A DNA stretch of 64,000 bases from Escherichia phage p000v, in sequence record NC_055781.1, one strand, 5' to 3'. Within the stretch, counting starts at the first letter, position 1, and the number at the start of each line of letters is the position of its first letter. A program made the translations under genes and the position numbers. Below are positions 6,530-30,946 of this stretch, one piece after another. The notes below the pieces were generated by a model. The model searched no databases, was not told the origin of the DNA, and was given only the letters and a program-made list of their open reading frames with translations.

Positions 6530-6829
6530 ACCGTGGTATTCTGCTCGATGGGAGACTGTCGAGCCAGACGTCGAAACAGTTTACAACGACGAAGAAACGT
6601 GTTATGATGAACCTACAGTAAACGATATGATTGATTTGGAAATGGGAAGAGATTATTATGCAAGTTAAATTATTGTACCGTTTATTAAAAAGTGGCAAGC
6701 ATGATTGGTATTTGCTTATTAAAACCGATCCGAATTTTTTCTCTGGACAACCATTTACAGTTCGTCCTACTAAACGTCAGCTTCGCAAAGCTAAACGTTC
6801 TCATCGTAACTTTTATAGAGAATATTGAT

Positions 6830-7243
6830 ATGAATATTTCTGAAACTCGCGGTAAATGGTTCAAGATTGTTAAAGAAGACGAAGAACTACAAGTCAAGTT
6901 TCCTGAATTAAAGAAAGGAACAATCATCAAGGTAATTGGTACTACTACCGAAGATGGTTATGGCGACCATGGCATTATCGAAGTGATGTTGAACACAGGT
7001 GAGAAACTTTGCATCTATGACCGTGATACTTCTCTTTGGTGCTTCTGGGAATCCCATTCAATAGATGAACTCGAAGAAATTGACCAAGTAGTTTGTGATG
7101 GTGGACTTGGTGAATTCGAAGGTGAACGTATTTCTTATGCTTTAGCTAAATTAGCTGGTCAAGAAAATAATGACGGTTATGAAGGTAATCTGATGCAAGC
7201 CGCAGCGGAATACATTGAATATTTAGAAAGACGTTTAAGTTAA
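6830..7243 (+). CDS. hypothetical acidic protein
   Basis: Internal ATG at 6830 directly after upstream stop (TGATATG); 5' part of tracked ORF overlaps another ORF. Confidence 0.5.
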   Translation: MNISETRGKWFKIVKEDEELQVKFPELKKGTIIKVIGTTTEDGYGDHGIIEVMLNTGEKLCIYDRDTSLWCFWESHSIDELEEIDQVVCDGGLGEFEGERISYALAKLAGQENNDGYEGNLMQAAAEYIEYLERRLS

Positions 7244-7278: not shown

Positions 7279-7752
7279 ATGTTATTATCTGGCAAATTAT
7301 ACAAAGAAGAAAAACAAAAATTTTATGATGCACAGAACGGTAAGTGTCCTATTTGCCACCGTGAATTAGACCCTGATGTTCAAGGTAACCATCTTGACCA
7401 CGACCACGAGTTAAACGGGCCAAAAGCCGGTAGAGTTCGTGGATTACTCTGTAATCTGTGCAACGCAGCAGAAGGCCAAATGAAGCATAAGTTCAACCGT
7501 TCTGGTCTTAAAGGTCAAAACGTTGATTACCTCGAATGGCTTGAAGCTCTTCTTGCTTATTTGAAACAAGATTATTCTGATAATAATATCCATCCTAATT
7601 TTGTTCCAGACAAAACTAAAGAGTTCTCAAGACTAGGTAAAGAGGAAATGATGGCTGAGATGCTTCAAAGAGGATTTGAATATAATGAATCTGATACTAA
7701 AACACAATTAATAGCTTCATTCAAAAAGCAGCTTAGAAAGAGTTTAAAATGA
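7279..7752 (+). CDS. 49: endonuclease VII (Holliday junction resolvase)
   Basis: 157 aa; near-identical to recalled T4 gp49 (MLL.GKLYKEEKQKFYDAQNGKC.IC..EL.PDVQ.NHLDHDHELNGPKAG). Confidence 0.9.
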   Translation: MLLSGKLYKEEKQKFYDAQNGKCPICHRELDPDVQGNHLDHDHELNGPKAGRVRGLLCNLCNAAEGQMKHKFNRSGLKGQNVDYLEWLEALLAYLKQDYSDNNIHPNFVPDKTKEFSRLGKEEMMAEMLQRGFEYNESDTKTQLIASFKKQLRKSLK

Positions 7753-9566
7753 AAATTGAAAAAGAAATTGAAGGATTAATTTATAAAACTAATAAAGATC
7801 TTTTGAACGAGAATGCTAATAAAGATTCTCGTGTTTTTCCAACTCAACGGGACCTTATGGCTGGTATTGTGTCTAAGCACATTGCCAAAAATATGGTCCC
7901 GTCTTTTATTATGAATGCGCATGAAAGTGGAATTATCCACATGCATGATATTGATTATTCTCCTGCTCTTCCGTTTACTAATTGTTGTTTAGTCGATTTA
8001 AAGGGGATGCTTGAGAACGGATTTAAATTAGGCAATGCTCAAATTGAAACGCCTAAATCGATTGGTGTTGCTACTGCAATTATGGCACAAATTACTGCAC
8101 AAGTTGCTTCACATCAGTATGGCGGAACTACATTTGCAAATGTCGATAAAGTTCTTTCTCCTTATGTTAAACGTACATACGCTAAACATGTTGAAGATGC
8201 AGAAAAATGGCAAATCGCTGATGCGTTGAATTATGCTCAATCTAAAACAGAAAAAGACGTATACGATGCATTCCAAGCTTATGAATATGAAGTAAATACT
8301 CTCTTTAGTTCAAACGGACAAACGCCTTTTGTAACAATTACATTTGGTACGGGAACCGATTGGACTGAACGAATGATTCAGAAGGCAATTCTGAAAAATC
8401 GGATTAAAGGTCTTGGTCGTGATGGGATAACTCCTATTTTTCCTAAACTTGTTATGTTTGTTGAAGAAGGTGTTAATCTTTATAAAGATGATCCAAACTA
8501 TGATATTAAACAACTTGCGTTAGAATGTGCAAGCAAAAGAATGTATCCTGACATTATTTCGGTTAAGAATAATAAAGCTATTACCGGTTCTTCAGTTCCT
8601 GTTTCTCCAATGGGTTGCCGTAGTTTCTTGAGCGTATGGAAAGATTCAACTGGAAATGAAATTCTTGACGGTCGTAATAATCTCGGTGTTGTAACACTGA
8701 ATCTTCCTCGCATCGCATTAGATTCTTATATTGGAACACAGTTCAATGAACAGAAATTTGTTGAATTATTCAATGAACGAATGGATTTATGTTTTGAAGC
8801 TTTGATGTGTAGAATTAGTTCCTTAAAAGGAGTTAAAGCGACTGTTGCTCCTATTCTTTACCAAGAAGGTGCATTCGGGGTTCGTCTTAAACCTGATGAC
8901 GATATAATTGAGTTATTTAAAAACGGTAGAAGTTCAGTGTCTTTAGGATACATCGGTATTCATGAATTGAATATTCTTGTTGGTCGTGATATTGGACAAG
9001 AAATTTTAACTAAAATGAATGCTCATCTTAAACAGTGGACTGAAAGAACTGGTTTTGCTTTTAGTTTGTATTCTACTCCTGCTGAAAACCTTTGTTATCG
9101 CTTCTGTAAACTCGATACAGAAAAATATGGAAGTGTAAAAGATGTTACCGATAAAGGCTGGTACACTAACAGTTTCCACGTTTCAGTAGAAGAAAATATT
9201 ACTCCGTTTGAAAAGATTTCTCGTGAAGCGCCATATCATTTCATTGCGACAGGTGGTCACATTTCTTATGTTGAACTTCCAGATATGAAAAACAATTTAA
9301 AGGGACTTGAGGCCGTCTGGGATTATGCTGCACAACATTTAGATTATTTTGGTGTTAATATGCCAGTGGATAAATGTTTTACATGTGGAAGTACCCATGA
9401 AATGACTCCTACTGAAAACGGATTTGTTTGTTCAGTTTGCGGAGAAACTGATCCTAAAAAGATGAACACCATAAGAAGAACATGCGGTTATTTGGGAAAT
9501 CCGAACGAACGCGGATTTAATCTCGGTAAAAATAAAGAAATCATGCATAGGGTTAAACACCAATGA
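7749..9566 (+). CDS. nrdD: anaerobic ribonucleoside-triphosphate reductase NrdD
   Basis: 605 aa; C-terminal glycyl-radical motif RRTCGYLG and Cys cluster; uninterrupted reading frame. Confidence 0.92.
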   Translation: MKIEKEIEGLIYKTNKDLLNENANKDSRVFPTQRDLMAGIVSKHIAKNMVPSFIMNAHESGIIHMHDIDYSPALPFTNCCLVDLKGMLENGFKLGNAQIETPKSIGVATAIMAQITAQVASHQYGGTTFANVDKVLSPYVKRTYAKHVEDAEKWQIADALNYAQSKTEKDVYDAFQAYEYEVNTLFSSNGQTPFVTITFGTGTDWTERMIQKAILKNRIKGLGRDGITPIFPKLVMFVEEGVNLYKDDPNYDIKQLALECASKRMYPDIISVKNNKAITGSSVPVSPMGCRSFLSVWKDSTGNEILDGRNNLGVVTLNLPRIALDSYIGTQFNEQKFVELFNERMDLCFEALMCRISSLKGVKATVAPILYQEGAFGVRLKPDDDIIELFKNGRSSVSLGYIGIHELNILVGRDIGQEILTKMNAHLKQWTERTGFAFSLYSTPAENLCYRFCKLDTEKYGSVKDVTDKGWYTNSFHVSVEENITPFEKISREAPYHFIATGGHISYVELPDMKNNLKGLEAVWDYAAQHLDYFGVNMPVDKCFTCGSTHEMTPTENGFVCSVCGETDPKKMNTIRRTCGYLGNPNERGFNLGKNKEIMHRVKHQ

Positions 9567-10033
9567 ATTATGATAGATTTTATCCTTGCGATTTTGTGAA
9601 TGGCCCGGGATGCAGGGTCGTTCTTTTCGTTACGGGTTGTTTGCATAAATGCGAAGGGTGTTATAATAAATCAACATGGAATGCTAGAAATGGTATTCCA
9701 TTCACTGGTGAAACACTAGAACAATTAATTGAATGTTTGAATAATGATTATATAGAAGGATTAACTATAACCGGAGGTGACCCTCTCTATCCTGATAACC
9801 GAGATGTTATTCATTGCATTGCTCAAACAGTAAAAAATCTTTATCCCAATAAAAGCATTTGGTTGTGGACAGGATATAAGTTTGAAGATATTAAACAACT
9901 AGAAATGCTTAAATATGTTGATGTTATTATTGATGGGAAGTATGAGAAAAATCTTCCGACTAAAAAGCTGTGGCGAGGATCAGATAATCAGCGACTTTGG
10001 TCAAATACCGATGGGGTGTGGAAACATGATTAA
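9563..10033 (+). CDS. nrdG: anaerobic RNR activating enzyme NrdG (radical SAM)
   Basis: 156 aa; CLHKCEGCYN radical-SAM-type Cys motif; coupled to nrdD (ATGA overlap). Confidence 0.9.
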   Translation: MNYDRFYPCDFVNGPGCRVVLFVTGCLHKCEGCYNKSTWNARNGIPFTGETLEQLIECLNNDYIEGLTITGGDPLYPDNRDVIHCIAQTVKNLYPNKSIWLWTGYKFEDIKQLEMLKYVDVIIDGKYEKNLPTKKLWRGSDNQRLWSNTDGVWKHD

Positions 10034-24395: not shown

Positions 24396-25031
24396 ATGAA
24401 AACTACACCAATCACTATCGCTATTGACGCAATCGTAAAACAAGCTTCATCTCTTGCCACTATGGCTAAAGTAATTAGTCAAAACTCTGCCCGATATAAT
24501 GCTATTCTTGAAACTCTTCGTCGCCCTGGACTGAGTAATTATGAAAGCCGAGTAATTATTACAGGTGTTGGTAAGAACGCTAATATCGCAACTAAAGCTT
24601 CCGAGACTTTTGCTTCACTAGGTATTCCTAGCATGTATTTGAACACCGGGCATTATTCTCATGGCGACGCAGGATTTATTGCACCTAATGATGTATTAGT
24701 TCACATCAGTCGTTCTGGTAAGACTGAAGAAATGATAGGTGTTGCTAAACATCTTCGTATGATTCGTCCTCAGGTTAAACAGATTCTGTTACATTGTAAC
24801 CCTGACATTCCGCAAGAATACGAAGCTCTTTTTGATTATACGTTCTGTACAGGCATCGCGGTAGAGGTTGATGAGAATTCTCTGGCTCCGACCATGTCCA
24901 CTACATTGTTGTTAGCGCTTATCGATACGTTTGCTATCAACCTTTCGTCTGAACGTGGATTTACCTCTAATGACTTCCTTAAGTTCCACCCTGGTGGTGC
25001 ACTAGGTGCCATGTTACGAGGCGAACAATGA
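24396..25031 (+). CDS. SIS-domain sugar-phosphate isomerase, KdsD/KpsF-like arabinose-5-phosphate isomerase without CBS domains
   Basis: ITGVGKNANIATKASETFASLGIPS, SHGDAGFIAPNDVLVHISRSGKTEE and HPGGALG resemble the API SIS domain. Confidence 0.8.
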   Translation: MKTTPITIAIDAIVKQASSLATMAKVISQNSARYNAILETLRRPGLSNYESRVIITGVGKNANIATKASETFASLGIPSMYLNTGHYSHGDAGFIAPNDVLVHISRSGKTEEMIGVAKHLRMIRPQVKQILLHCNPDIPQEYEALFDYTFCTGIAVEVDENSLAPTMSTTLLLALIDTFAINLSSERGFTSNDFLKFHPGGALGAMLRGEQ

Positions 25032-25212: not shown

Positions 25213-26898
25213 ATGAAAAAAGCTGTTATTCTTGGTGCTGGACTGGCAACTCGTTTGTATCCAATAACGCACCATATTCCTAAGGTGCTTGTTAACTATA
25301 AACAAGACACTATTCTGAGCAATTTGTATACAATTTATTCTGACCTTGGCGCAGATGAAATTATTGTAGTAGTTCATTCAAAATTTGCTGAAACTGTTCG
25401 AGCTTATTGCGAGCAAGAAGGGTTCAATGTGACTATTCGTACAGTTGATGAAGCGTATGGTTCTGCTTATGCTCTTGCTAAATTATACAAAGATTTAGAT
25501 GGCCATAACGTAATTGTTAACTGGTGTGATATTATTCCTGACTTTGGTTCATGGTCTTGGAATGTTAACGCAATCTATGTTAAGGGTGATGAATGTCGAT
25601 ATAATTTCGATGGTGAAAATATCACTAACGTAGGTTCAACAGGTGGTAATGTTGTAGGAATTTATCAGTTCAAAGACTGGGAATTCTACATGGGTTCTAC
25701 TGATGAGGAAATTCACGAATACTGCAAAGGTCGTGATTTCGTAGAATTCCTTTACGGCAGTGCATTCAATAAATCAGAGCTTATGAATCTAATTGATTTA
25801 GGTGATATGCCTAAACTTGAAAAGGCTCATGAAGTTCGTGAACTGAATCGTAGTTTTAATGCAGTTGAAATTGGCGAAGAAACTGTAACTAAATTCGCGT
25901 TAACCGAACAAGGTCGAGCTCTTCAAAAAGATGAGATTTCATGGTATTTGAAAGTGAAATCAGATTCAGTTCCTCAGTTAGTTTCGGTAAATGAAAATAA
26001 TTTTGAAATGGAACGTATTAAAGGTAAGCCGGCATTTGAATATATTAAATCCAAATCAAGTCTTGCTCGTCCACAAATTGTTGATGCAATTTTAGATGCA
26101 CTGAAATTCAGCACGGACACTTATTTTGTAAGTCCTGAAACTGTTCGCCGTGATTTCACTAAAGAGTTCTATACGAAAGTTATTGATCGTTGTGAAAGCA
26201 TTCAGCCATTGATTGATTCATTTGGTAAAATCACACGTGTGAACTACACTAAGATTGGACGTCTGAAGCCAATGTTGAAACAAGCTTTAGAACATCTTAT
26301 TCGTTATCATAACCGTTCTCAGGGACAGTACTCTGTTATTCATGGTGACCCGAACTTCAGTAATACTATGATTACCGATAACGGCGAAGTCAAGTTTATC
26401 GACCCTCGTGGATATTTTGGTGAAACCAAGATTTACGGGCCAAAATTGTATGATGAAGCTAAAGTGCTTTATGCTGTTTCAGGTTATGATGAATTCAATG
26501 CTAATCCGACCTGGGGTCAGTTTACTATTGATGAAACAACTTGTAATGTGACTATTAACATCAATCCATTAGTTTACAAATATGGAAAGATGAGTTCGTT
26601 TAACGAGTATCATCATTTGGCAGTAGCAATTATCTGGATTGCATTAGGTGGTTATTTCAAGAATAATCCACTTAAAGCGGTTGCCGCATATTATAAAGGT
26701 ATGGAACTTCTGACTAAGCAATTACGTAACATGGGCCGTGTACTTCAAGACGGCTCTATTAGTTATGACGTAGCAGAACCTGTAACGGCTACTCTGATTA
26801 CAAAAAATCCTGGTAAATGGGTACTAACTGATAAAGAAACTGGTGTTTCCTATCGTCCAATCGGCGGCGATATCACTCATCAATGGGAACGAATCTAA
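25213..26898 (+). CDS. bifunctional sugar-1-phosphate nucleotidyltransferase / APH-like sugar kinase
   Basis: N-terminus ILGAGLATRLYPITHHIPKVLV is an NTP-transferase signature; C-terminal HGDPNFSNTMITDNGEVKFIDPRGYFG is an APH/choline-kinase catalytic motif. Confidence 0.8.
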   Translation: MKKAVILGAGLATRLYPITHHIPKVLVNYKQDTILSNLYTIYSDLGADEIIVVVHSKFAETVRAYCEQEGFNVTIRTVDEAYGSAYALAKLYKDLDGHNVIVNWCDIIPDFGSWSWNVNAIYVKGDECRYNFDGENITNVGSTGGNVVGIYQFKDWEFYMGSTDEEIHEYCKGRDFVEFLYGSAFNKSELMNLIDLGDMPKLEKAHEVRELNRSFNAVEIGEETVTKFALTEQGRALQKDEISWYLKVKSDSVPQLVSVNENNFEMERIKGKPAFEYIKSKSSLARPQIVDAILDALKFSTDTYFVSPETVRRDFTKEFYTKVIDRCESIQPLIDSFGKITRVNYTKIGRLKPMLKQALEHLIRYHNRSQGQYSVIHGDPNFSNTMITDNGEVKFIDPRGYFGETKIYGPKLYDEAKVLYAVSGYDEFNANPTWGQFTIDETTCNVTININPLVYKYGKMSSFNEYHHLAVAIIWIALGGYFKNNPLKAVAAYYKGMELLTKQLRNMGRVLQDGSISYDVAEPVTATLITKNPGKWVLTDKETGVSYRPIGGDITHQWERI

Positions 26899-27284
26899 TG
26901 CACCGTGTAGAAAACATGCTTAATCTTTGTTTTGATGTCGATGATTGTATAACAGAGTGGAATAACAATCGTGATTACGTGAACTTCAAACCAGACGTCG
27001 AAATGGTGTCTGCCATTAATGCCCTGTATGATGCAGGGCATACCATAACGCTTTACACTGCCCGTGGTATGAAGTCGGTAGGTCCTGGTCGTATAGCAAT
27101 TGACATTCTCCCAAGTCTGATTCAGAACTTGGAAAACATTGGTTTGAAGTACCATAATTTGCTAACACATAAACCAGTATATGATTGGATTATCGACGAC
27201 AAAGCTATGCGTCCTGACGAATTCAAAGCTCTTATGAATAAAGGCGAATTCGAAACATTTAAATCATATAAACCAAATCTATAA
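26883..27284 (+). CDS. HAD-superfamily phosphatase (small, capless)
   Basis: Motif I FDVDDCIT, motif II TLYTAR, motif III/IV K..(n)..IIDDKA; alternative ATG at 26898. Confidence 0.7.
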   Translation: MGTNLMHRVENMLNLCFDVDDCITEWNNNRDYVNFKPDVEMVSAINALYDAGHTITLYTARGMKSVGPGRIAIDILPSLIQNLENIGLKYHNLLTHKPVYDWIIDDKAMRPDEFKALMNKGEFETFKSYKPNL

Positions 27285-27341
27285 TAATTTAAGTAAGACC
27301 TGCAAAAACCATCGCATCAATTAACGCGAGATGCAAAAAAA

Positions 27342-28502
27342 ATGAATACTTTTAAAATCGGAACGAATTTTGATTTAGCTCTTCTTGATAAAATCGTAGA
27401 GCTCAATAAAACCTATCCTAATAGCTTGATAAACGAAGTATATGGCTCTACAAGAGAAATGGCTTTTGTAGCAGCCAGACCTGATTTTAGGCTTCCTGAC
27501 GTTGACAAAAAGATGTTAGAAGACTACGTTAAACGTTGTAACGAATTAGGTATTTGCTTTAACTATACACTCAACACGATAAATCCTGGTTCAAAAAGAG
27601 AACTAGTTGAGTGGAAGAAGAAAGCTATTCAGGATTATGTTCAGTATCTTTGGTCAATAGGCGTATGGCGTATTACTATCGCTAACCCTGTTGTTATGGA
27701 AATTGTTCGTGAAGTCAATAAAGATATTGAGATTGAAGTTTCAACAATTCTACATGTCGATGCGGTAACTCAAATCAAATACTTACATGACCAATATAAC
27801 ATCAAAAAGGTCTGTTGCGGAATTCATAAGAACCGTTCAGTTTCTTTCCTGAAGCGTGCAGCAGAGTTTTGCAATAAGAACAATATAATATTTGAAGTTC
27901 TTGTAAATGAGTTCTGTTCTAATGCTGGTAAAGGGTATACAACACATTGTAGTTATCGTGACTCTTGCTATATTTTCCATAGTACTGATGTTACCGCTGA
28001 TGATGCTAAATCCTTAAATGGATATCCTATGCAGCACTGTATTAAAGCTCGTGATACAGACCCATTTAACTGGTTGAGAACTCGTTTTGTTCGTCCTCAA
28101 GATTTGAAACTTTATAATGATATTGGTATCACTCAATTCAAAGTTTCAGGACGTACAGGTAGCACAGACTACATTTTGAAAGTTCTTGAAGCATACGCTT
28201 CTGAAAAGTTTGAAGGTAATTTGTTAGAACTGTGGAAGCCTTTAGAGACTATTTTCACTCTTGAAAATGAGACTGAGTTTTCACATACAGTAAATATTGA
28301 AACCTCTTTGTTAGATGGCTTTTTAGAAAAAAGGTGGTTCAGACATCCAGATTTTGATTGTGCTAATGAAATCTGTGGGTCAACGTGTACATATTGTGAA
28401 AGGTATTATAAACGTCAATTATCTAAAAACGGGTTAGCAGAAAACTCCATATCTATTATTGATATAACTAACTCTGATGACGCTTTGAGGTACCCGGAAT
28501 GA
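27342..28502 (+). CDS. Cys-rich protein of unknown function (possible metal or Fe-S enzyme)
   Basis: 386 aa; Cys clusters CC, C-x10-C-x6-C and C-x4-C-x3-C-x2-C; no recognisable family by eye. Confidence 0.6.
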   Translation: MNTFKIGTNFDLALLDKIVELNKTYPNSLINEVYGSTREMAFVAARPDFRLPDVDKKMLEDYVKRCNELGICFNYTLNTINPGSKRELVEWKKKAIQDYVQYLWSIGVWRITIANPVVMEIVREVNKDIEIEVSTILHVDAVTQIKYLHDQYNIKKVCCGIHKNRSVSFLKRAAEFCNKNNIIFEVLVNEFCSNAGKGYTTHCSYRDSCYIFHSTDVTADDAKSLNGYPMQHCIKARDTDPFNWLRTRFVRPQDLKLYNDIGITQFKVSGRTGSTDYILKVLEAYASEKFEGNLLELWKPLETIFTLENETEFSHTVNIETSLLDGFLEKRWFRHPDFDCANEICGSTCTYCERYYKRQLSKNGLAENSISIIDITNSDDALRYPE

Positions 28503-28780: not shown

Positions 28781-29497
28781 ATGGGAAAACATAACACAAT
28801 GAAATATATCAAAGCCGCAGATTTTCAAACCGCATTTAAAGCAGTCAATCGTGAAATTTTAGAAAACCCGGAATTCGTAACTGATTCTCGTATTGGACGT
28901 TGTAATGAAATTGGGTCTATGACAGTAGTTGTTGACACTCCATCATCATTCAAAATGACCGACCCACGTATTAACCGCATCTCTTATGAATATGCCGAAG
29001 ACTTCTGGAAGTTTATGATTTCTGGTGGTACCAACGCAGAAGAAGCGTTTAAGGCATATCCTAATGTCGCTAAATTTATTTCTAAACCAAAATCAGATGT
29101 TTTGCCGGCGAACTTCAACACTTTCTATGGTCCTCGCATTGCGGCCCAATTACCAACTCTTCTAAAAGAACTTAAAGAGAAGCCTAACTCCCGAAGAGTT
29201 GTGTTCCAAATTCTAGAAAGTTCTGATCAGGCTTTGCTTGATTCGGACGAAACACTTGAATATCCATGTACTGACTCAGTAACTTATTATATTCGTGATG
29301 GTAAGCTTTATACCCACTGTCATATGCGTTCTCAGAACTGTGCTGTTGTTATGCAGTTGGATTTTTATCTCCAAGGAAAATTACTTCATTATATCGCTAA
29401 CGAATGCGGTGTAGAAGTTGGTGATTATACTCATACCATGGTAAGTGCCCATGTGTTTGAACGTGATTTTGATTATGTTAAAGGATTCCTTGACTAA
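28781..29497 (+). CDS. 42: thymidylate-synthase-fold pyrimidine hydroxymethylase (dCMP hydroxymethylase gp42)
   Basis: TS-like motifs NSRRVV, catalytic Cys in EYPCTDS, HMRSQN; synteny with T4 gene 42. Confidence 0.75.
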   Translation: MGKHNTMKYIKAADFQTAFKAVNREILENPEFVTDSRIGRCNEIGSMTVVVDTPSSFKMTDPRINRISYEYAEDFWKFMISGGTNAEEAFKAYPNVAKFISKPKSDVLPANFNTFYGPRIAAQLPTLLKELKEKPNSRRVVFQILESSDQALLDSDETLEYPCTDSVTYYIRDGKLYTHCHMRSQNCAVVMQLDFYLQGKLLHYIANECGVEVGDYTHTMVSAHVFERDFDYVKGFLD

Positions 29498-30396
29498 TGG
29501 CTATTTTCCGCGTACCAATCTTGAGTATGCGGTCTTATGAAACTGGACAGTATGCTATCCTTAAGGATGGCAACTTCCAACTTCATTTGCACCGTGCTAA
29601 TCCGGGTGATGTGATTACATATCCACGTAATGCATCTGATATTAAAGAATGCGAACGTCTTTTCCCAGAATTTAAGTTTGTTCCATTATGGTATAAAGAT
29701 AACGCGTATAACACTCGTAAATATTTCTGGACTGAAAATGAATTTGTGGTTGATTCATTAATTGATTATTATGATTGTGATTTTCTAATCACAGATATCA
29801 CTGGTTATGGTGGCGCTTTTGATGTGGAATTCAATTTCAATATCACTGCAGACCCTAATAAACCACGTTTTTATATTGATGAATTCTTAAAAACCGACAT
29901 GTTGTCTGTTAATCGTTCACTTCAAACTACTGTGTTGAATGAACGTCAAAAAGAAGTGCTGGTTAACGCAGGTGCAGATGGTAATAAGATTATCGTAACG
30001 CAGAAAGTTATACGTCCTTCCATCATGCAGCGTCTTGTAGGTGATTTGGCTCCTATTCATCTAGATGGTATTTTTCATCCATTTCGAATTAGTGACCCAT
30101 GTTATCGTTTTGAACAAGTGGTTGAATGTGCAATTCAATTAGGTCAACCGCTTTATATAACCGATCCAAATAATAGCTTCGACAGAAATAAGTATCCTGA
30201 AGAAGCGCTGATTCGAATTTTTAAACCAACTAAAACTGAGTACTATCAAATTCTTAAAGGACGTCCGAAAATTCAATATTTCGAAAATCCTGAAGAAGTA
30301 TTCCATCCAGGTCTTGGTGAGTTCATCTACTTTAATGCTTTAATTTCTTCGCCGTATAATATACCTAAATACGAAGATGTCGTAATCGAGGAATAA
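29497..30396 (+). CDS. hypothetical protein occupying the T4 b-gt position
   Basis: 299 aa; coupled start TAATG; no recognisable motif. Confidence 0.55.
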   Translation: MAIFRVPILSMRSYETGQYAILKDGNFQLHLHRANPGDVITYPRNASDIKECERLFPEFKFVPLWYKDNAYNTRKYFWTENEFVVDSLIDYYDCDFLITDITGYGGAFDVEFNFNITADPNKPRFYIDEFLKTDMLSVNRSLQTTVLNERQKEVLVNAGADGNKIIVTQKVIRPSIMQRLVGDLAPIHLDGIFHPFRISDPCYRFEQVVECAIQLGQPLYITDPNNSFDRNKYPEEALIRIFKPTKTEYYQILKGRPKIQYFENPEEVFHPGLGEFIYFNALISSPYNIPKYEDVVIEE

Positions 30397-30397
30397 A

Positions 30398-30946
30398 ATG
30401 GCTAAAATTATTTTAGTAGATGGCCCGGATAATGCCGGTAAAACAACTTTCATTAATGACATAATGGAAATTAGTGAAAGATATGTAAAGATTGATTTCC
30501 CTAAACGAACAGTTGATGGACGTTTCGATGTTAAGTCTCGAAATGAAGTTGGCTGTTTCGAAACGATGTTGAATTATTTAGACCCTACTAAGATTTATCT
30601 GTTAGACCGTGGATATATTAGTAACTGGGTTTATGGACGTATTCGACAAGATGCGGACTCGATTCTTGACGTTTATGAACAGGACTATGTTCGTCTTTGC
30701 CAAAACCATGATGTGTTCACAATTATTTTAACACGTAACGAAATGACTGAAAGTTTTGAAGACGACCTTATTACTTTGTCTTCATTCGGTTTTAATACAG
30801 TCATTTCACATTTTGAAGAGTTTGCAATTCATAACAAAATCCAAACATATCAATTACTTAATCATGATGGTGCTAACAAAGTTATAGGATTTAATGCAAG
30901 CGAACGTAATGGTTTGATTACAGAAATCATCAAATGGGCTCGTTAA
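30398..30946 (+). CDS. P-loop kinase-like protein
   Basis: Walker A GPDNAGKTT and LLDRGY motif reminiscent of nucleoside/nucleotide kinases. Confidence 0.55.
   Translation: MAKIILVDGPDNAGKTTFINDIMEISERYVKIDFPKRTVDGRFDVKSRNEVGCFETMLNYLDPTKIYLLDRGYISNWVYGRIRQDADSILDVYEQDYVRLCQNHDVFTIILTRNEMTESFEDDLITLSSFGFNTVISHFEEFAIHNKIQTYQLLNHDGANKVIGFNASERNGLITEIIKWAR

Follow-up and report, generated by a model that had tools for sequence, protein, structure and literature searches.

A U32-family gene in the cytosine-modification island of an RB69-like coliphage, a candidate for oxygen-independent hydroxylation of pyrimidine deoxynucleotides

The 64,000-nucleotide stretch of Escherichia phage p000v (NC_055781.1) analyzed here in full, referred to below as the window, belongs to a T4-like phage of the genus Mosigvirus (RB69 group) and carries a DNA-modification island between the genes for DNA polymerase gp43 and UvsX, whose DNA is 97.5-99.3% identical to that of the best-matching coliphage records (Table 1). 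Within this island lies an open reading frame (ORF) that encodes a putative iron-sulfur (Fe-S) protein of the U32 family, orthologous to RB69 gp50 and hereafter called the U32 gene, for which we propose a role in making the hydroxylated base without molecular oxygen. A preliminary description of this DNA had delimited the ORF exactly as we find it and had singled it out as the least explained gene of the island, a judgment that we share. It had also taken the ORF for the last gene of the island, which it is not, as a 79-amino-acid (aa) ORF (ORF X), a homolog of the thymidylate synthase ThyA, a glycosyltransferase (GT) and a kinase follow before uvsX. A promoter-like sequence precedes the U32 gene, and such matches across the region were not above those in shuffled sequences in a promoter and terminator scan (19 versus 26.7 expected). 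The junction of the HAD phosphatase and U32 genes is a hotspot for mobile insertions, as shown by Serratia phage LC53, where it is interrupted by a NUMOD3-type homing-endonuclease gene (L001:3852-4490).

Table 1. Position of the U32 gene, its putative metal sites and other features in the window.
Feature	Position	Strand	Remarks
Putative U32-family Fe-S hydroxylase, RB69 gp50 ortholog (RB69p050)	27342..28502	+	ATG start, 386 aa
Variant four-Cys motif C192...C203-x5-C209...C233, putative [4Fe-4S] site in U32 domain	27915..28040	+	Invariant in 114 homologs
Second four-Cys cluster C340-x4-C345-x3-C349-x2-C352, putative Fe-S/metal site	28359..28397	+	Invariant in 114 homologs
Sigma-70-like promoter match TTTAAA-16-TATAAT, unverified	27258..27285	+	10/12 match, in gap 5' of U32 gene
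ORF X, 79 aa	28499..28738	+	phrog_8601; start overlaps U32 stop by 4 nt
ThyA homolog, O2/FMN-dependent 5-hydroxy-dCMP synthase type, RB69 gp48 ortholog	28781..29497	+	Pfam Thymidylat_synt; L143E, C146, D169N signature
Putative DNA arabinosyltransferase (RB69 gp46:47-like)	29497..30396	+	phrog_3891; same position in all T4-like loci; assignment PMC13326640
Thymidylate-kinase-like nucleotide kinase	30398..30946	+	phrog_761
SIS-domain arabinose-5-phosphate isomerase	24396..25031	+	Pfam SIS; NCBIfam KpsF/GutQ, KdsD
Bifunctional sugar-1-phosphate nucleotidyltransferase/kinase (AfhE-like)	25213..26898	+	Pfam NTP_transferase and weak kinase matches; PMC13326640
HAD-type sugar phosphatase (AfhF-like)	26883..27284	+	NCBIfam TIGR01689; phrog_1238; PMC13326640
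NrdD and NrdG, anaerobic class III ribonucleotide reductase and radical-SAM activase	7749..9566, 9563..10033	+	Pfam NRDD 571.6 bits; Fer4_12, Radical_SAM

Contrary to the preliminary description, which had found no family for the encoded protein, Pfam Peptidase_U32 (PF01136) recognizes residues 94-286 with 42.2 bits versus a gathering cut-off of 22.4, the same domain is precomputed on nearly all homologs and a match to PHROG 5757 spans the full length of the protein. A confident AlphaFold2 model built on 114 homologs (predicted local distance difference test score, pLDDT, 93.5; predicted template-modeling score, pTM, 0.91) has the TIM-barrel fold of the solved U32 protein Mk0906 (PDB 5D88), placing the protein in the U32 superfamily; a sequence search of PDB chains returned no meaningful match. 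An exhaustive profile search of 1.84 billion representatives yielded 494 clusters of homologs at E <= 1e-30 and only 1,719 at E <= 1e-3, and a hidden Markov model (HMM) of the clade scored TrhP, RlhA and UbiU at only 6-16 bits (TrhP 15.6, in fragments; RlhA 9.7). On the basis of these low scores and sharply bounded cluster counts, sequence comparison defines the protein as a member of a distinct, deeply diverged and mostly phage-borne U32 subfamily (~500 clusters at 50% identity). The longer subfamily members contain no informative Rosetta-stone fusion, just an intein and a weak DUF2621 match; the 699-aa member P0215 is split by an intein (Intein_splicing and Hint_2 domains).

The protein does not belong to any of the characterized U32 families. 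Its 386 aa accommodate only the U32 core and no DUF3656, as opposed to RlhA (U32 plus DUF3656 plus Cys580/Cys611, ~650 aa), it has neither an NCBIfam TrhP match nor the C-terminal extension of TrhP, and the NCBIfam UbiU model (NF047963) reaches 18.5 bits versus a 440-bit cut-off. A sister relationship to RlhA was likewise considered and found unjustified, as hhalign favors RlhA and hmmsearch favors TrhP, both weakly. These comparisons bear on the idea that the phage encodes a TrhP- or RlhA-like RNA hydroxylase that tunes translation by way of host or phage tRNA or rRNA. RNA is the only known nucleic-acid substrate of U32 enzymes (PMC5727448, PMC6599085) and RlhA is the best hhalign match, yet the C-terminal domains of both RNA-modifying enzymes are missing from the phage protein, the HMM similarity to them is marginal, the gene is found consistently within DNA-precursor or DNA-modification modules and E. 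coli already encodes TrhP and RlhA, so that we regard an RNA substrate as decidedly improbable.

The preliminary description had called the protein Cys-rich. With 13 Cys (positions 66, 72, 158, 159, 177, 192, 203, 209, 233, 340, 345, 349 and 352), corresponding to 3.4% of its residues versus a median of 1.07%, it indeed ranks third among the 67 ORFs of the window, the top rank being held by the Fe-S protein NrdG. Ten of these Cys are conserved across the 114 homologs, which reach down to 46% identity: nine never vary (C158, C192, C203, C209, C233, C340, C345, C349 and C352) and the tenth, C177, is kept in at least 90%, a conservation far above chance. The individual Cys motifs that had been described fared unevenly: the CC pair exists (C158-C159) with only C158 conserved, the proposed C-x10-C-x6-C cluster has the first spacing and not the second (the actual arrangement being C192-x10-C203-x5-C209), and the C-terminal C-x4-C-x3-C-x2-C cluster was read correctly and proved invariant. 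C203 and C209 align with C169 and C176 of UbiU and RlhA, residues proven to ligate the [4Fe-4S] cluster (PMC6747719, PMC5727448), E185 aligns with RlhA E161, and the motifs C-Y-x-x-H and F-K-x-x-G-R are common to the phage protein and RlhA. Four highly conserved Cys in or near the U32 motif, the hallmark of Fe-S U32 hydroxylation factors, are present. Because ten Cys are conserved and C203 and C209 coincide with proven cluster ligands, the metal or Fe-S site that the preliminary description had suggested is likely to exist. When the E. coli U32 enzymes are aligned, nothing in the canonical U32 pattern corresponds to the C340-C352 cluster. The spacing of C345, C349 and C352 fits the CX3CX2C motif of radical-SAM enzymes, but it lies C-terminally on a U32 barrel and Pfam Radical_SAM gives no match, and we rejected this assignment as a resemblance only.

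The historical family name and the automatic GenBank annotations, the only points in its favor, would make the protein a genuine collagenase-like peptidase. This we consider very improbable, given that no catalytic mechanism is known for the U32 'peptidases', that the characterized members are Fe-S hydroxylation factors (PMC10990095) and that the gene context is one of nucleotide metabolism and not of morphogenesis or lysis.

The chemistry of the island is known from RB69, whose DNA carries arabinosylated 5-hydroxycytosine (5hoC) and not hydroxymethylcytosine, and whose ThyA homolog gp48 was demonstrated to be a 5-hydroxy-dCMP synthase, a flavin mononucleotide (FMN) enzyme that takes its oxygen from O2 as revealed by 18O2 labelling (PMC13326640). 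In the same paper the RB69 ortholog of the U32 gene appears in Table 1 only, as "Sugar or heterocycle reductase" with a 5D88 match, and RNA pyrimidine hydroxylation pathways are mentioned (citing the RlhA and TrhP papers) without a tie to gp50. The earlier literature does not discuss the gene, and the later Nucleic Acids Research paper, which cites He et al. 2026 and Mahler et al. 2025, assigns it no function. Our literature search, whose scope did not extend to He et al. 2026 (Nat Chem Biol) and Mahler et al. 2025 (Cell Host Microbe), found nothing that connects phage U32 proteins to 5hoC, prephenate, chorismate mutase (CM) or anaerobiosis.

The preliminary description had offered three functions, a sugar-modifying enzyme, an accessory factor of the transferase or a second transferase, all of which fit poorly: Acinetobacter phages that lack the gene keep the sugar genes, their order and the chemistry, and the most specific conserved partner of the gene is CM (see below). 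The related proposal that the protein acts on a sugar or sugar nucleotide, for example as a reductase or hydroxylase of an arabinose precursor, draws on the position of the gene between the sugar-phosphatase gene and the base-modification genes, on its co-occurrence with AfhE-like, HAD, SIS and GT genes in unrelated phages, and on existing labels, namely the BASEL annotation 'putative enzyme involved in UDP-arabinose biosynthesis' and the Table 1 entry cited above. Against it stand the Acinetobacter phages with an identical sugar gene set and no U32 gene, among them DLP3, which makes the same arabinosyl-5hoC (PMC13326640), as well as subfamily members that reside among genes of deoxynucleoside monophosphate (dNMP) metabolism with no sugar genes nearby. 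Moreover, AfhE-like and AfhF-like enzymes are reported, in the account that PMC13326640 gives of He et al., to be all that is required for the synthesis of uridine diphosphate (UDP)-arabinose (UDP-Araf), and a sugar substrate leaves the linkage to CM and 3-deoxy-D-arabino-heptulosonate 7-phosphate (DAHP) synthase unexplained. A role on the sugar side therefore seems rather unlikely to us.

Since DLP3 produces the modification without it, the chemistry as such does not require the U32 gene. No other gene of the island is nevertheless as conserved and as constrained: its cross-genus identity is 81-88% (ThyA homolog 68-83%, GT 49-68%), and its ratio of nonsynonymous to synonymous substitution rates (dN/dS) between two Mosigviruses is 0.010, the lowest in the island and similar to that of UvsX (0.014), with ORF X relaxed at 0.37. 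Elsewhere, other members of the subfamily adjoin genes for dCMP deaminase, dUTPase, thymidylate kinase, uracil-DNA glycosylase (UDG), NT5C, deoxynucleoside kinase and a replicative polymerase. In contigs of huge phages (L004:246-1454, L007:9080-9826) the U32 gene lies between dCMP deaminase and an unannotated protein of ~250 aa (with a weak epimerase-like match in L007), and L004 additionally encodes a 402-aa protein with a weak GT-like (QTMAN_N) match beside thymidylate kinase and UDG; these neighborhoods hint at another glycosylated-base pathway. An 86-kb contig with a dockerin/GH43 gene, which points to an anaerobic Firmicute, encodes two U32-subfamily paralogs (L005:13227-14360 and neighbors) near a radical-SAM/SPASM protein, NT5C, a deoxynucleoside kinase, a nicotinamide mononucleotide transporter and a nucleoside 2-deoxyribosyltransferase-like gene, and may represent a different nucleoside-modification island.

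An indirect pointer to the co-substrate came from the adjoining slot. Prephenate is genetically proven to be required by RlhA, TrhP and UbiU/V and isotopically proven to be the oxygen donor for UbiU/V (PMC5727448, PMC6599085, PMC10990095). The gene that overlaps the stop codon of U32 encodes an AroQ CM both in Serratia phage LC53 (44.6 bits) and in Enterobacter phage Entb_45 (40.9 bits), versus a 27-bit Pfam cut-off. Altogether, 51 T4-like phage records that span at least 12 host genera have a Pfam-significant CM_2 gene in the slot after U32, and the U32 stop often overlaps the CM start. The phage CMs retain six of the eight active-site residues of the E. coli enzyme EcCM (R11, R28, K39, E52, S84 and Q88), and U32 and CM are still together in Shewanella phage Thanatos-1, whose cluster is rearranged. 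The association extends to 32 non-T4-like loci on contigs of up to 466 kb with U32 proteins 44-55% identical to that of p000v: CM lies beside U32 in ten of them, six times as a standalone 107-aa AroQ at the U32 stop codon and four times as a DAHP synthase-CM fusion (L045:4411-5433, L048:4321-5376, L046:9-971 and L058:7079-8197). Phages with such a fusion seem to reinforce entry into the shikimate pathway along with prephenate formation. Similarly, CM is present in three of the eight bacterial loci, from anaerobe metagenome-assembled genomes (MAGs), that carry U32. CM, rather than any sugar enzyme, is thus the most specific conserved partner of the U32 gene.

The window encodes ORF X in this slot. 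We examined whether ORF X is a CM, possibly a degenerate one, and rejected this, as it has no Pfam or NCBIfam match, does not fit CM_2 with its R11/R28/K39/E52/S84/Q88 active-site pattern and reaches a probability of just 0.1% in hhalign against the CM family. Yersinia, Pectobacterium and Serratia 92A1 phages encode it next to a true CM (gene order U32-X-CM-ThyA), and it accompanies the U32 gene in 161 phage records. ORF X is confined to T4-like phages, features the motif YY-x-DAF-x-HS...G...R-[HY]-[IL], contains no Cys and belongs to no detectable family. Some Mosigvirus records have it in a shortened or frameshifted form, and the AlphaFold2 model of ORF X is poor (three helices, pLDDT 62). 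Kinship with the small proteins that flank U32 in anaerobe-phage loci was assessed and rejected. Mosigviruses appear to have lost the phage CM that accompanies U32 in most other lineages, and prephenate would therefore come from host PheA/TyrA.

To relate the gene to oxygen, we compared the distribution of the U32 and ThyA-type genes with the oxygen use of the hosts. Of the 372 phage records with the ThyA-type synthase, 57 are from Acinetobacter, a strict aerobe, and 20 from Rhizobium, mainly aerobic, and U32 was not found in phages of these two hosts: the hosts named for the 220 phage records with a U32 gene are Enterobacterales and Shewanella, with no Acinetobacter or Rhizobium among the organism names. 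Acinetobacter phage Konradin has the same gene order minus exactly the U32 cassette, and a search of it with the U32 HMM gave no match. In phages of facultative anaerobes (Enterobacterales, Shewanella) the ThyA type is present and U32 usually accompanies it, with absences in some such as Dhakavirus. Conversely, the 32 non-T4-like loci, which lie on anaerobe-associated contigs, contain U32, often with CM, and none has a ThyA of the 5-hydroxy-dCMP synthase type within 6 kb. The single ThyA match among them is a canonical-type thymidylate synthase (L143, D169 and N177 kept; L035:1509-2360), located on a 230-kb viral contig a few genes from U32, a GT and an AfhE-like gene. The 32 loci carry an Aat-like GT (14/32, usually directly upstream), an AfhE-like gene (15/32) or a SIS gene (8/32). 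The presence of NrdD and NrdG, which in the window adjoin endonuclease VII (7279..7752) and a PinA-like protease inhibitor (6692..7243), shows that p000v is equipped for anoxic DNA synthesis. The hosts of phages with NrdD are mostly facultative and obligate anaerobes, with Acinetobacter outside the top ten.

The same distribution speaks to the possibility that the U32 protein serves the ThyA-type FMN hydroxylase as an Fe-S electron-transfer partner, for example as a flavin reductase. Only ORF X separates the two genes, the U32 protein has two putative metal clusters, and the ThyA-type enzyme binds FMN loosely and requires reducing equivalents (PMC13326640). Nonetheless, U32 occurs in 32 loci without the 5-hydroxy-dCMP synthase type of ThyA within 6 kb, Acinetobacter and Rhizobium phages have the ThyA type without U32, and the ThyA-type enzyme alone gave detectable 5-hydroxydeoxycytidine in E. 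coli DNA, with a clear peak when the phage dNMP kinase was added (PMC13326640). As an electron-transfer role also leaves the CM linkage unexplained, we hold it to be quite unlikely.

In cellular genomes, eight U32 loci turned up among one genome each of 100,044 species, in Erysipelotrichales, a Bacillota MAG, Lachnospiraceae, Romboutsia (two), Tannerella, Phocaeicola faecalis and a groundwater BRC1 MAG, all of which are anaerobic lineages or come from anoxic habitats. The Romboutsia contigs share a U32-CM-GT-AfhE-HAD-GT module with large IMG/VR contigs; the host assignment of the large viral contigs is based on near-identical MAG contigs. In the Romboutsia-associated large phage contigs L050, L053, L055, L056, L059, L060, L068 and L072, one or two genes for RimK-type ATP-grasp ligases are located upstream of U32-CM-GT, accompanied by small membrane-like proteins (clusters C8, C10 and C11).

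Taken together, family, Cys conservation, gene linkage and distribution lead us to favor, with some reserve, the reading that the U32 gene of p000v encodes a prephenate-dependent, O2-independent C5 hydroxylase of pyrimidine dNMPs that provides an anaerobic route to 5-hydroxy-dCMP. The protein belongs functionally to the DNA-modification island, most likely on the side of base hydroxylation. One [4Fe-4S] cluster would be held by C192, C203, C209 and C233, and a second one probably by C340, C345, C349 and C352. Prephenate would act as the oxygen donor, giving phenylpyruvate and CO2, and C5 of dCMP would be hydroxylated to yield 5-hydroxy-dCMP, the same product as that of the neighboring FMN- and O2-dependent ThyA homolog. 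The phage would in this way command two routes to an essential modified base, the ThyA type with O2 and the U32 type without O2, after which 5-hydroxy-dCMP would be phosphorylated, built into DNA and arabinosylated by the remaining enzymes of the island. In this Mosigvirus the prephenate would be supplied by host PheA/TyrA. As each genome contains ~62,600 cytosines, a full burst would take millions of prephenate molecules per infected cell, a demand that would explain why many lineages carry CM or even DAHP synthase. More generally, we see about even chances that the subfamily as a whole hydroxylates free pyrimidine deoxynucleotides with prephenate in place of O2, with the p000v protein as founding viral member, serving as the sole route to 5-hydroxypyrimidines in phages of obligate anaerobes and as a back-up in those of facultative anaerobes.

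A U32 hydroxylase could instead act at another step or on another substrate, be it dUMP, cytosine within DNA or a second hydroxylation. Some homologs adjoin dCMP deaminase or dUTPase, both of which produce dUMP, and the characterized relatives act on polymers. T4-like phages exclude unmodified dCTP ahead of replication, a strategy that argues against such alternatives in p000v. Only cytosine derivatives are reported as modified in RB69-type DNA (PMC13326640), and on these two grounds dCMP is favored as substrate in this phage and another step or substrate appears unlikely; in other lineages dUMP may well be the substrate.

Several points weigh against hydroxylation of dCMP with prephenate. First, no U32 protein has yet been proven to be a hydroxylase in vitro and the assays are still awaited (PMC10990095). 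Second, the subfamily is so distant from RlhA, TrhP and UbiU that the transfer of function amounts to superfamily analogy plus context, and its Cys spacing (CX10CX5CX23C) is a variant and not the canonical CX6CX15CX3/4C (CX6CX16CX38C in UbiU; PMC6747719). Third, the window itself has no CM, only ORF X. Fourth, the ThyA type occurs without U32 in part of the enteric phages, Dhakavirus being an example, and the gene is therefore not mandatory in phages of facultative anaerobes. Fifth, the correlation with aerobic and anaerobic hosts reflects few independent lineages, and the absence of ThyA from anaerobe-phage loci holds within ~6 kb only. Finally, U32 co-occurs with sugar genes in the anaerobe-phage loci, a context with which a sugar-side role is compatible. 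In the Dhakavirus Escherichia phage dhabil (L012), the AfhE-like, HAD, kinase, ThyA-type and GT genes are present and the SIS isomerase and U32 cassette are absent; dhabil presumably obtains its arabinose-5-phosphate through host KdsD/GutQ and needs O2 to make 5hoC. A 178-aa Dhakavirus gene at the position of the cassette was considered as a substitute for U32 and dismissed, as it is the relocated thymidylate-kinase-like gene.

The published RB69-like 5hoC hydroxylase needs O2, yet the main habitat of these coliphages, which substitute all of their cytosines, is the anoxic gut. How 5hoC might be made there without O2 is not addressed in the literature that we found, He et al. 2026 and Mahler et al. 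2025 being outside its scope, and the U32 gene offers a concrete and testable answer. The known substrates of U32 hydroxylases, namely ribosomes, tRNAs and very hydrophobic quinone precursors, have so far stood in the way of reconstitution in vitro (PMC10990095). If our proposal is correct, the phage protein would be the first U32 hydroxylase with a small, soluble and commercially available substrate, and thus an ideal system for the chemistry of prephenate-dependent hydroxylation. It would also extend the principle of paired aerobic and anaerobic isoenzymes, as in NrdAB/NrdDG, to phage DNA hypermodification and explain the phage-borne CM and DAHP synthase genes. Therapeutic phages of the Mosigvirus type may then perform differently in oxic culture and at anoxic infection sites, and their sensitivity to modification-dependent defenses may likewise vary between the two settings.

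The closest parallels to the proposed activity are found among the characterized U32 members RlhA, TrhP and UbiU/UbiV, Fe-S proteins without which aromatic carbons, C5 of cytidine and uridine among them, are not hydroxylated by the O2-independent route that depends on prephenate (PMC5727448, PMC6599085, PMC6747719, PMC10990095). RlhA (YdcP), the 5-hydroxycytidine-2501 synthase of E. coli 23S rRNA, shares with the phage protein the superfamily domain, the motifs E...C-x5/6-C-Y-x-x-H and F-K-x-x-G-R, U32-motif Cys that are essential in RlhA, and a C-terminal Cys group, and its proposed prephenate- and Fe-S-dependent hydroxylation of cytosine C5 is the chemistry that we propose here (PMC5727448). 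It differs in size and architecture (653 aa with DUF3656 versus 386 aa without), in spacing (x6 versus x5, with the third Cys 15 versus 23 residues further on) and in acting on rRNA, whereas the phage-encoded protein would act on a free deoxynucleotide. For 5-hydroxyuridine-34 of tRNA, the U32 protein TrhP provides a prephenate-dependent, O2-independent route and TrhO a second route that requires O2, and organisms living in both regimes keep both (PMC6599085). The phage pair of U32 and ThyA type would follow the same logic and has the same distribution with host oxygen, except that the O2-dependent partner is a flavin-dependent homolog of thymidylate synthase and not a rhodanese, that the substrates would be DNA precursors and that the phage protein lacks the C-terminal domain of TrhP.

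UbiU-UbiV are likewise U32 [4Fe-4S] proteins, with prephenate as proven donor, and replace the flavin- and O2-dependent monooxygenases UbiI/H/F under anoxia (PMC6747719, PMC10990095). Their active unit contains two clusters, comparable to the two invariant four-Cys groups in the single chain of the phage protein, but they form a heterodimer that requires the UbiT carrier and hydroxylate a lipid quinone precursor. The ThyA-type 5-hydroxy-dCMP synthases (RB69 gp48, DLP3 gp80 and the homologous HY126 enzyme) would share product and pathway with the U32 protein and are encoded by near-neighbor genes, with a thymidylate-synthase fold, FMN and oxygen from O2; their activity is experimentally proven, whereas that of the U32 protein is predicted from its sequence and surroundings. 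Finally, NrdD/NrdG and NrdA/NrdB in the T4 family set a precedent for paired aerobic and anaerobic enzymes at one step of DNA-precursor synthesis, in this case ribonucleotide reduction by enzyme families different from those of the U32 and ThyA-type pair.

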